Both the position numbers and the translations under genes were made by a program. From NCBI GenBank assembly GCA_000004985.1, contig GG739591.1: 1,054 nucleotides of DNA, one strand, 5' to 3'. Below the pieces are notes generated by a model, which saw only the letters and a program-made list of their open reading frames with translations, searched no databases and had not been told where the DNA came from. Positions 1 to 1,054 of this stretch are shown here, one piece after another (the first letter of the stretch is position 1; the number at the start of each line of letters is the position of its first letter). Source of the DNA: Naegleria gruberi (lineage: Eukaryota).

Positions 1-973
1 AACTTGACTCGCTCTCAAAACAAAGACGATCGTTCACATAGATCTTGGTGCCATCTACAAATGATTTAATAATGACTACCGTGTAAGTTTGCGATAACAT
101 ATGAATTTCGTTAGGAATAGTTTGGATATATCTATCATTAAATTCAATAGTTTGACCTTCAAAAAATAGCGAAGTTCCTGACATGTAAATGGAGAATGAG
201 GGTCCACTCGTAATATTCATAATTGGATTGTATTCCTTAAACTCTTTAACATTAACCTTAAATGAAACATAAAAATCATTCGAGAACATGTAGAGAGGGG
301 AAATGTTGTCCTTGGTTCTTCCAATGAGACCGCTTCCATTACGGAACGATATTAAACCATCAACAAGCACCAAGTTAACAACAGATATTGTTAAATTACC
401 ACCTAGCTCGTTGAGATTGAAAGAACCGTCAGAGTTTTTCCACAAGTATTCTGAACTCATCTTTAACCTGAATGAATAATTTGGATATTCTGCCTTCAGT
501 GTTGATTGGAATGTTTGCAGTTCTTTAACAAATAATGTGTCAACTCCACTTTGAATATAGTCTGTTGATTTGCAATCGTTCCCGCAACTGTTTGAGTGAA
601 CATATCCAATAATTAATTCGCATGAATCTCCCCCATATACTACACCATCTTGAATGGTGCAATTACACATGTTCGGACCAATACAAGTACCATGTCCTGA
701 ACAAACATTAGGTTCATCGTTGTATATTATTCCAAAACAAGTGTGAGTTTCACATTGAGAATTAGTATGACCAGGAAAACATGAACAAATATCCGTGTCA
801 ACACATATACCATGTCCTGAACAAACATTAACGAGATCTGAACTTGGAATTTCGAAACAAGAGAAATCTTCTGCATCCACAAGACAACATCCAACAATCA
901 CCAACAGCACCAACAACAAATGCACATGCTTTGTATGCTGCGTGTGTATTTTCCTCGAGTATGAAAGACGCAT
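1..973 (-). CDS. Partial CDS (3' end lies beyond the left window edge) for a secreted modular protein: signal peptide, two EGF-like domains, then a LamG/ConA-like domain. The first 324 aa lie in the window.
   Basis: Hand translation of minus-strand frame with codon starts at 973, 970 ... 4. ATG at 973-971 and 324 sense codons to position 2 with no TAA/TAG/TGA. In AT-rich DNA, a stop-free run of this length in a non-coding frame is very unlikely. An in-frame TAA at 979-977 lies two codons upstream of the ATG, so the ORF cannot extend further 5'. The N-terminus has the charged-then-hydrophobic-then-VDA layout of a signal peptide. Two canonical 6-Cys EGF modules follow. The ORF track omits it, presumably because it has no stop in the window. 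Confidence 0.82.
   Translation of the reverse strand, partial: MRLSYSRKIHTQHTKHVHLLLVLLVIVGCCLVDAEDFSCFEIPSSDLVNVCSGHGICVDTDICSCFPGHTNSQCETHTCFGIIYNDEPNVCSGHGTCIGPNMCNCTIQDGVVYGGDSCELIIGYVHSNSCGNDCKSTDYIQSGVDTLFVKELQTFQSTLKAEYPNYSFRLKMSSEYLWKNSDGSFNLNELGGNLTISVVNLVLVDGLISFRNGSGLIGRTKDNISPLYMFSNDFYVSFKVNVKEFKEYNPIMNITSGPSFSIYMSGTSLFFEGQTIEFNDRYIQTIPNEIHMLSQTYTVVIIKSFVDGTKIYVNDRLCFESESS
2..493 (-). other. Laminin-G / concanavalin-A-like lectin-type beta-sandwich domain (aa ~161-324). Tentative, and truncated by the window edge.
   Basis: Low-cysteine region with an SFRLKM segment (compare LamG 'sFeFRT'). About 30 aa later comes NLVLVDGLISFRNGSG, resembling the LamG core '(D)FLaLELvDGrl.f.fdlGSG'. 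Later, TVVIIKSLVDGTKIYVNDRLC ends in a Cys, consistent with the C-terminal LamG disulfide. Six N-x-S/T sequons are present (NYS, NLT, NGS, NIS, NIT, plus NCT in EGF-2). This is an assignment by eye only. Confidence 0.35.
617..739 (-). other. EGF-like domain 2 (aa 79-119).
   Basis: Cys pattern C79-x11-C91-x5-C97-x5-C103-x1-C105-x12-C118-E, with a VVYGGDSCE ending typical of EGF (G-Y-x-G-x-x-C-E). It is about 40 aa downstream of EGF-1 with the same (P/V)NVCSGHG core. Confidence 0.65.
688..710. repeat. Copy 1 of a perfect 23-nt direct repeat (taccatgtcctgaacaaacatta on the + strand).
   Basis: Identical to 808..830. It encodes the NVCSGHG core of EGF-2 on the minus strand. Flanking bases diverge immediately on both sides. 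Confidence 0.9.
749..859 (-). other. EGF-like domain 1 (aa 39-75).
   Basis: Cys pattern C39-x11-C51-x5-C57-x5-C63-x1-C65-x8-C74-E. It has the hallmark CxC...G(aromatic/His)...C-E ending and the CSGHGxC motif seen in tenascin/teneurin-type EGF repeats. Confidence 0.65.
808..830. repeat. Copy 2 of a perfect 23-nt direct repeat (taccatgtcctgaacaaacatta on the + strand).
   Basis: Identical to 688..710. The spacing is exactly 120 nt, which is 40 codons, the EGF module period. It encodes the (x)NVCSGHG core of EGF-1 on the minus strand. Confidence 0.9.
872..973 (-). other. Predicted N-terminal signal peptide (aa 1-34, MRLSYSRKIHTQHTKHVHLLLVLLVIVGCCLVDA), with likely cleavage after VDA.
   Basis: Basic/His-rich n-region (R2, R7, K8, H10, H13, K15, H16, H18). 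A 14-residue hydrophobic core LLLVLLVIVGCCLV. V at -3 and A at -1 before E35-D36. Direct reading of the translation; not run through SignalP. Confidence 0.6.
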
Positions 974-1054
974 TTTTTATGACTGGTACAGTGCGTGTAG
1001 TTGGCTGAGTGTTGTCCAAATATGAAGATATCAAAAACCTTACTACAGTTATTA
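974..1054 (-). promoter_or_regulatory. 5' flank and putative 5'UTR/promoter region of the minus-strand gene.
   Basis: Minus-strand reading gives ...cactgtaccagtcataaaaaATGcgt, an A-rich start context with A at -3. No GGAGG-like Shine-Dalgarno is present. Stops occur in all three minus frames within this 81 nt. No convincing TATA box or -10/-35 pair identified. Confidence 0.25.

Follow-up and report, generated by a model that had tools for sequence, protein, structure and literature searches.

A small scaffold of Naegleria gruberi with the probable 5' part of a gene for a secreted or surface EGF/Laminin_G_3-type protein

Introduction

Proteins in which EGF modules are combined with LG/LNS domains are found in animals, e.g. 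neurexins, laminin alpha chains, agrin, Gas6, and CELSR, and a comparable layout is seen in the protein fragment described here from the heterolobosean amoeba Naegleria gruberi. The resemblance to the animal proteins is one of architecture and not of orthology, as the Naegleria sequence has no match to Laminin_G_1/2 and shares 5-11% identity with them in structural alignments. Two further groups have the superfamily fold alone in common with it, namely the lectin-like Hc-N domain of clostridial neurotoxins and NTNH (Toxin_R_bind_N, PF07953), which stays below the Pfam cutoff and comes with no toxin context, and the CBM40 sialic-acid-binding modules, likewise below the Pfam cutoff and with no sialidase context. 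Among solved structures, the EGF-rich tubular mastigoneme proteins of Ochromonas (PDB 9ufe) provide the best sequence match to the EGF pair (E = 1.8e-7, residues 40-103), but this match is limited to the EGF modules, the lectin-fold domain has no counterpart there, and nothing points to a role in flagellar hairs.

The one true relative stems from the same species. NAEGRDRAFT_58267 (XP_002676246.1, UniProt D2VHZ3) is an uncharacterized protein of 5396 aa encoded on a 461,873-bp scaffold of N. gruberi, and it shares with our fragment a module made up of an EGF pair, a helix with the motif NYSFRLK and a Laminin_G_3-like beta sandwich. Eleven copies of the lectin-fold domain, dozens of EGF modules, long Cys-rich linkers, an N-x-T-rich tract and a transmembrane anchor are found in NAEGRDRAFT_58267 alone, whereas a signal-peptide-like start, a shorter linker and a single visible (cut) copy of the domain characterize the fragment, the model of NAEGRDRAFT_58267 being devoid of a signal peptide. 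A literature search with the accessions and with Naegleria in combination with laminin G or Laminin_G_3 returned nothing relevant on either the protein or its paralogue. Here, we analyse the fragment on the stretch of DNA of 1,054 bp that carries it (hereafter the window) and compare it with this giant paralogue.

Results

All features of the window that we assign to the gene lie on the minus strand and are given from the 5' end of the gene onwards:

974..1054, minus strand: 5' flank or untranslated leader with in-frame stops and an A-rich context (AAAAA) directly before the ATG, from the frame translation
2..973, minus strand: coding sequence open over 324 codons and unterminated in the window, the 5' portion of a gene, equal to XP_002667946.1/EFC35202.1 plus one codon
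872..973, minus strand: signal-peptide-like segment, residues 1-34, from a Kyte-Doolittle profile and sequence inspection
752..859, minus strand: EGF module 1, residues 39-74, with the pattern C-x11-C-x5-C-x5-C-x-C-x8-C and the best Pfam EGF_2 stretch at residues 49-74
620..739, minus strand: EGF module 2, residues 79-118, with the pattern C-x11-C-x5-C-x5-C-x-C-x12-C and the second EGF_2 stretch
542..619, minus strand: short linker, residues 119-144, holding an additional pair of cysteines (C130, C134), from the cysteine spacing
2..541, minus strand: putative divergent concanavalin-A-like / Laminin_G_3-type domain, residues 145-324, interrupted by the end of the contig, from the profile of paralogue copies and a structure model

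The open 324-codon frame (2..973, minus strand) starts with a methionine codon at 973-971 and runs through 323 more sense codons to position 2, and the six stops that this frame contains in all are situated 5' of the ATG. An initial annotation of the sequence had described the frame from 973 as stop-free, and our re-translation likewise found no in-frame stop between 2 and 973. The same annotation had placed a TAA immediately before the ATG; an in-frame TAA is indeed the nearest upstream stop (979-977), but one AAA codon (Lys, 976-974) stands between the two. The GC content of the window is 31-40%, a stop is expected at 7.1% of codons from its base composition, and 325 open codons would be encountered by chance with p ~4.5e-11. 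The remaining five frames contain 14-27 stops each, and their longest open run amounts to 84 codons.

As had been noted before, the track of open reading frames (at least 60 aa) holds just two short overlapping entries, 795..1025 on the plus strand (76 aa) and 828..1034 on the minus strand (68 aa), while the 324-codon frame is missing from it because the list leaves out ORFs running off the sequence. Both short ORFs lie across the 5' end of the real gene, the one running antisense to it and the other in a different frame, and nothing in our analyses supports either of them as a gene. The accompanying warning that annotation would miss the gene applies to this track but not to RefSeq, which holds the model: the translation is 100% identical over its full length to the 323-aa XP_002667946.1/EFC35202.1, ‘predicted protein, partial [Naegleria gruberi]’, a 3'-partial model that is one codon shorter than the frame permits. 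The gene is already part of the public annotation and not new. As XP_002667946.1 sits on one contig of exactly 1054 bp, the window is a complete small unplaced scaffold of the N. gruberi assembly. The gene lies on the minus strand, the window carries its promoter-proximal end, and no more than a single exon is visible. A scan of the window against Rfam gave no RNA family, and a search of the window for inverted repeats gave none.

The first 34 residues show, by inspection alone, the layout of a secretory signal (basic n-region, h-region of 7-15 residues, small residues at -3/-1). The n-region is basic (R2, R7, K8, K15), a hydrophobic core of 14 residues follows at residues 19-32 (LLLVLLVIVGCCLV), and V32-D33-A34 precedes E35 as a V-x-A site, so that the sequence makes A34|E35 the likely cleavage point. 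Kyte-Doolittle hydropathy peaks at 2.36 in residues 16-34, and the core falls short of the length of a typical membrane span. The fragment contains six N-x-S/T sequons as compared to ~3.9 expected by composition.

Two EGF modules follow. Pfam EGF_2 (PF07974) scores 25.0 bits against a cutoff of 22.1 in two stretches, and both units possess the full six-cysteine pattern with the C4-x-C5 motif and the C5-x8-12-C6 loop. Of the three EGF families that had been anticipated, PF07974 was therefore recovered above its cutoff, PF00008 appeared weakly (E = 0.034) and PF12661 gave no match; EGF_Teneurin was sub-threshold in the Pfam scan of the protein. A direct repeat of 46 nt in the DNA (665-710 and 785-830, 80% identical, exactly 120 nt or 40 codons apart) identifies the two modules as a tandem duplication. 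The linker behind them (residues 119-144) matches no Pfam family.

The remaining two thirds of the protein consist of an N-terminal helix (~residues 145-171, window 461-541) and subsequent beta strands. When the C-terminal 204 aa were run exhaustively with HMMER against 1.84 billion representatives, one true relative emerged, NAEGRDRAFT_58267 (E = 3.9e-144, 38% identity, 8 stretches). Together with the identity to the NCBI gene model, this match bears out the earlier proposal of a real gene. A profile built locally from the best copies revealed 11 copies of a domain of ~228 positions in NAEGRDRAFT_58267 that alternate with EGF modules, the domain of the window being 38-51% identical to the best of them. 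It covers positions 1-181 of the 228-position profile (E = 9e-86). The C-terminus had been predicted to lie beyond position 1, and ~47 profile positions of this final domain are indeed absent from the window, including the last strands (‘..iGfd....f.G.iD.i.i’).

Pfam gave no match to the domain of the window itself even at E = 10, irrespective of whether residues 121-324, 135-324 or 182-324 were used, and PF00054 and PF02210 (Laminin_G_1/2) matched neither the window protein nor any paralogue copy at E <=1. We aligned the window domain with ten paralogue copies (alignment A1) and scanned each copy against Pfam. Laminin_G_3 (PF13385) matches five paralogue copies in all, two of them above the curated cutoff:

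Paralogue residues 620-835: Laminin_G_3 (PF13385), 33.6 bits, above the 27.6-bit cutoff
Paralogue residues 3515-3738: Laminin_G_3 (PF13385), 29.3 bits, above the 27.6-bit cutoff
Paralogue residues 1025-1258, 51% identical to the window: Laminin_G_3 (PF13385), 24.9 bits, E = 2.4e-5, profile positions 28-140 of 151, below the cutoff
Two further paralogue copies: Laminin_G_3 (PF13385), below the cutoff

The AlphaFold2 model obtained with alignment A1 (mean pLDDT 65, pTM 0.55, with values >80 in the beta-sandwich core and in the last ~90 residues) consists of one helix and 14 beta strands; a single-sequence AlphaFold model of residues 121-324 reached a pLDDT of 37 and was set aside. Foldseek assigned the model to the ConA-like fold class as well, but with weak scores (best E = 1.3e-3, TM ~0.4). 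The predicted fold is a ConA-like/LG jelly roll, i.e. a curved two-sheet beta-sandwich, and the signature strand of Laminin_G_3 (‘...G T x v Y v N g ...’) is also present in the window. Compared to the 151-position Laminin_G_3 model, the window domain has an extra N-terminal helix and strands that fall outside the model. Taken together, transitive and structural evidence suggests that it belongs to the ConA-like lectin/glucanase superfamily, Laminin_G_3 type; the assignment takes this route because the window's own domain matches no Pfam model. The possible laminin G domain of the initial annotation is thus upheld for PF13385 and the superfamily, via the paralogue copies and the predicted fold, and fails for PF00054 and PF02210.

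Two other matches to this region were rejected as chance. A Plasmodium-type thioredoxin match (E = 0.04-0.065, 47 residues) is not significant, lacks the CxxC motif and contradicts the beta-sandwich model. A bacterial-type protein of 4115 aa (E = 1.6e-6) aligns a stretch of 28 residues (window residues 269-296) with the unit ‘YIDTIPGEIGVGCDTIRMLDLY’, which forms part of a tandem repeat (‘...NTYDFAGQYIDTIPGEIGVGCDTIRMLDLYIEP...’) at residues ~700-1900 of that protein, and we judged this to be chance and not homology, the score being inflated because the unit is repeated ~10-fold.

Besides NAEGRDRAFT_58267, the exhaustive search of 1.84 billion representatives gave no true relative of the lectin-fold domain at E <=0.001. 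A word-indexed protein search, either with the C-terminal region alone or with the 11-row alignment, returned the query's own record only. It also missed NAEGRDRAFT_58267 despite the presence of this protein in the collection and long shared exact words (e.g. YNPIMNITSG); very long proteins may be out of reach of the word index, and its negatives need care. Metagenomes offered neither environmental relatives nor an extension in a protein-pattern scan, and an exact-DNA scan with the left end of the window found nothing there. As far as the databases go, the lectin-fold sub-family looks restricted to N. gruberi, while the superfamily is universal.

The giant paralogue itself possesses 171 N-x-S/T sequons and, at its C-terminus, a helix of strong hydrophobicity (ILAGAISGAVAIILIVTVLVFVVAGIW) with a short cytoplasmic tail behind it that is first basic and then acidic. 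Its sequence gives the impression of a type I membrane protein with heavy glycosylation. Its model opens mid-domain (residues 47-117 correspond to profile positions 151-223). Because of this mid-domain beginning and the missing signal peptide, the annotated start is almost certainly wrong or adjoins an assembly gap. Residues ~2300-2465, situated between two modules, are composed of long degenerate N-x-T/S repeats (‘NFTNSNFTSDNITIGNYTYTN...’) with no counterpart in the window; this tract looks like a mucin-like, hyper-N-glycosylated spacer.

Discussion

We are confident that the open frame is truly the 5' portion of a gene whose product is an EGF/Laminin_G_3 protein, secreted or on the cell surface. 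The coherent modular protein that had been perceived in the sequence at the outset is confirmed in its parts, with a signal-like segment, two EGF modules, a linker and the first ~80% of a lectin-fold domain. In such a protein, the nascent chain would enter the ER through the signal peptide and might be N-glycosylated at the six sequons. Judging from the domain classes, the disulfide-locked EGF modules would serve as rigid spacers, and the lectin-fold domain(s) would recognize glycans or proteins as ligands, either on the cell surface or in the surrounding medium. A product that enters the ER, holds EGF spacers and binds ligands through a lectin fold would be a secreted or membrane-anchored adhesion/recognition glycoprotein of the amoeba surface, the most likely role in our view, to which we give about an even chance. 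Should the family turn out to be a surface adhesin specific to Naegleria, it could be relevant to substrate or prey recognition by the amoeba.

What follows beyond position 1 would comprise at least ~47 residues and possibly thousands. We tentatively propose that the fragment might be the signal-peptide-bearing N-terminus of a giant membrane-anchored protein, either a second paralogue or the start of NAEGRDRAFT_58267, and thus a member of an EGF/LG-like family that is confined to Naegleria gruberi in the exhaustive search and mimics neurexin/laminin-type adhesion proteins. If true, this ‘metazoan-looking’ surface adhesin would be an independent, lineage-specific invention in a heterolobosean amoeba.

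Alternatively, the stop codon might follow soon after the contig end, giving a small secreted protein of ~370-400 aa with a signal peptide, two EGF modules and one lectin-fold domain that acts as a soluble lectin-like factor. Some ~47 more residues would complete the domain, the linker between EGF module 2 and the domain is far shorter than the Cys-rich linkers of NAEGRDRAFT_58267, and no feature of the window demands more modules. On the other hand, every domain copy in NAEGRDRAFT_58267, the only known relative, is succeeded by more EGF modules, with a membrane anchor at the end of the chain, which leaves the small soluble protein somewhat doubtful.

It is unlikely that the fragment belongs to the NAEGRDRAFT_58267 gene itself as its missing 5' end, split off by an assembly gap, even though the two seem to complement each other at first sight: the 5396-aa model lacks a signal peptide and opens partway through a lectin-fold domain, the window provides a start codon, a signal peptide and the same type of module, and it is the only other sequence with the domain among the 1.84 billion representatives. 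The profile coordinates, however, overlap with different residues. The window covers positions 1-181 and NAEGRDRAFT_58267 starts at ~position 105, with QTYTVVIIKSFVDGTKIYVNDRL in the window versus TYPFYLALVKSSSQGLKLVANTTDVY in the paralogue. The two are therefore not directly contiguous, and at least one further EGF/lectin module would be needed in the unsequenced gap.

We consider it highly improbable that the window represents the remnant of a dead gene or an artefact of assembly (e.g. an orphan scaffold or a repeat read that was collapsed or chimeric) and yields no protein. An unplaced 1,054-bp scaffold is a possible assembly leftover and a highly repetitive family invites mis-assembly, but the start and the signal-like segment are intact, the 324 codons are free of stops and frameshifts, 12 of the 12 EGF cysteines are kept, and so are the (nearly) invariant residues of the paralogous copies (K, S, G, N in A1). 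An identity of just 38-51% further implies that the window is not a mis-assembled copy of NAEGRDRAFT_58267. Finally, an open frame arisen by chance in AT-rich DNA, for which nothing speaks beyond the absence of stops that served as the original cue, can be dismissed as practically impossible given the probability of ~4.5e-11 and the significant matches at the protein level (EGF_2 and the N. gruberi paralogue).

The genuine gene fragment is in itself an ordinary result, in that the gene is deposited, the domains are common and the omission from the track is a property of the ORF lister. Its value lies chiefly in quality control, as the sole gene on a short contig goes unseen when an ORF track leaves out open-ended frames. 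Added to this are the assignment of the C-terminal two thirds of a RefSeq ‘predicted protein’, which has no other annotation, to the ConA-like/Laminin_G_3 type, the tie between XP_002667946.1 and a single giant N. gruberi paralogue, and the sign that the gene model of this paralogue is 5'-incomplete.

A minor observation concerns the EGF pair, whose closest non-self match is a 425-aa JGI metagenome protein with ~9 EGF modules of the same ‘CFGI...VCSG.G.C’ type. Behind these modules come a transmembrane helix and the first part of a protein-kinase domain (GSFGVVF), so that the protein, which probably stems from another protist, has the architecture of an EGF-repeat receptor kinase.
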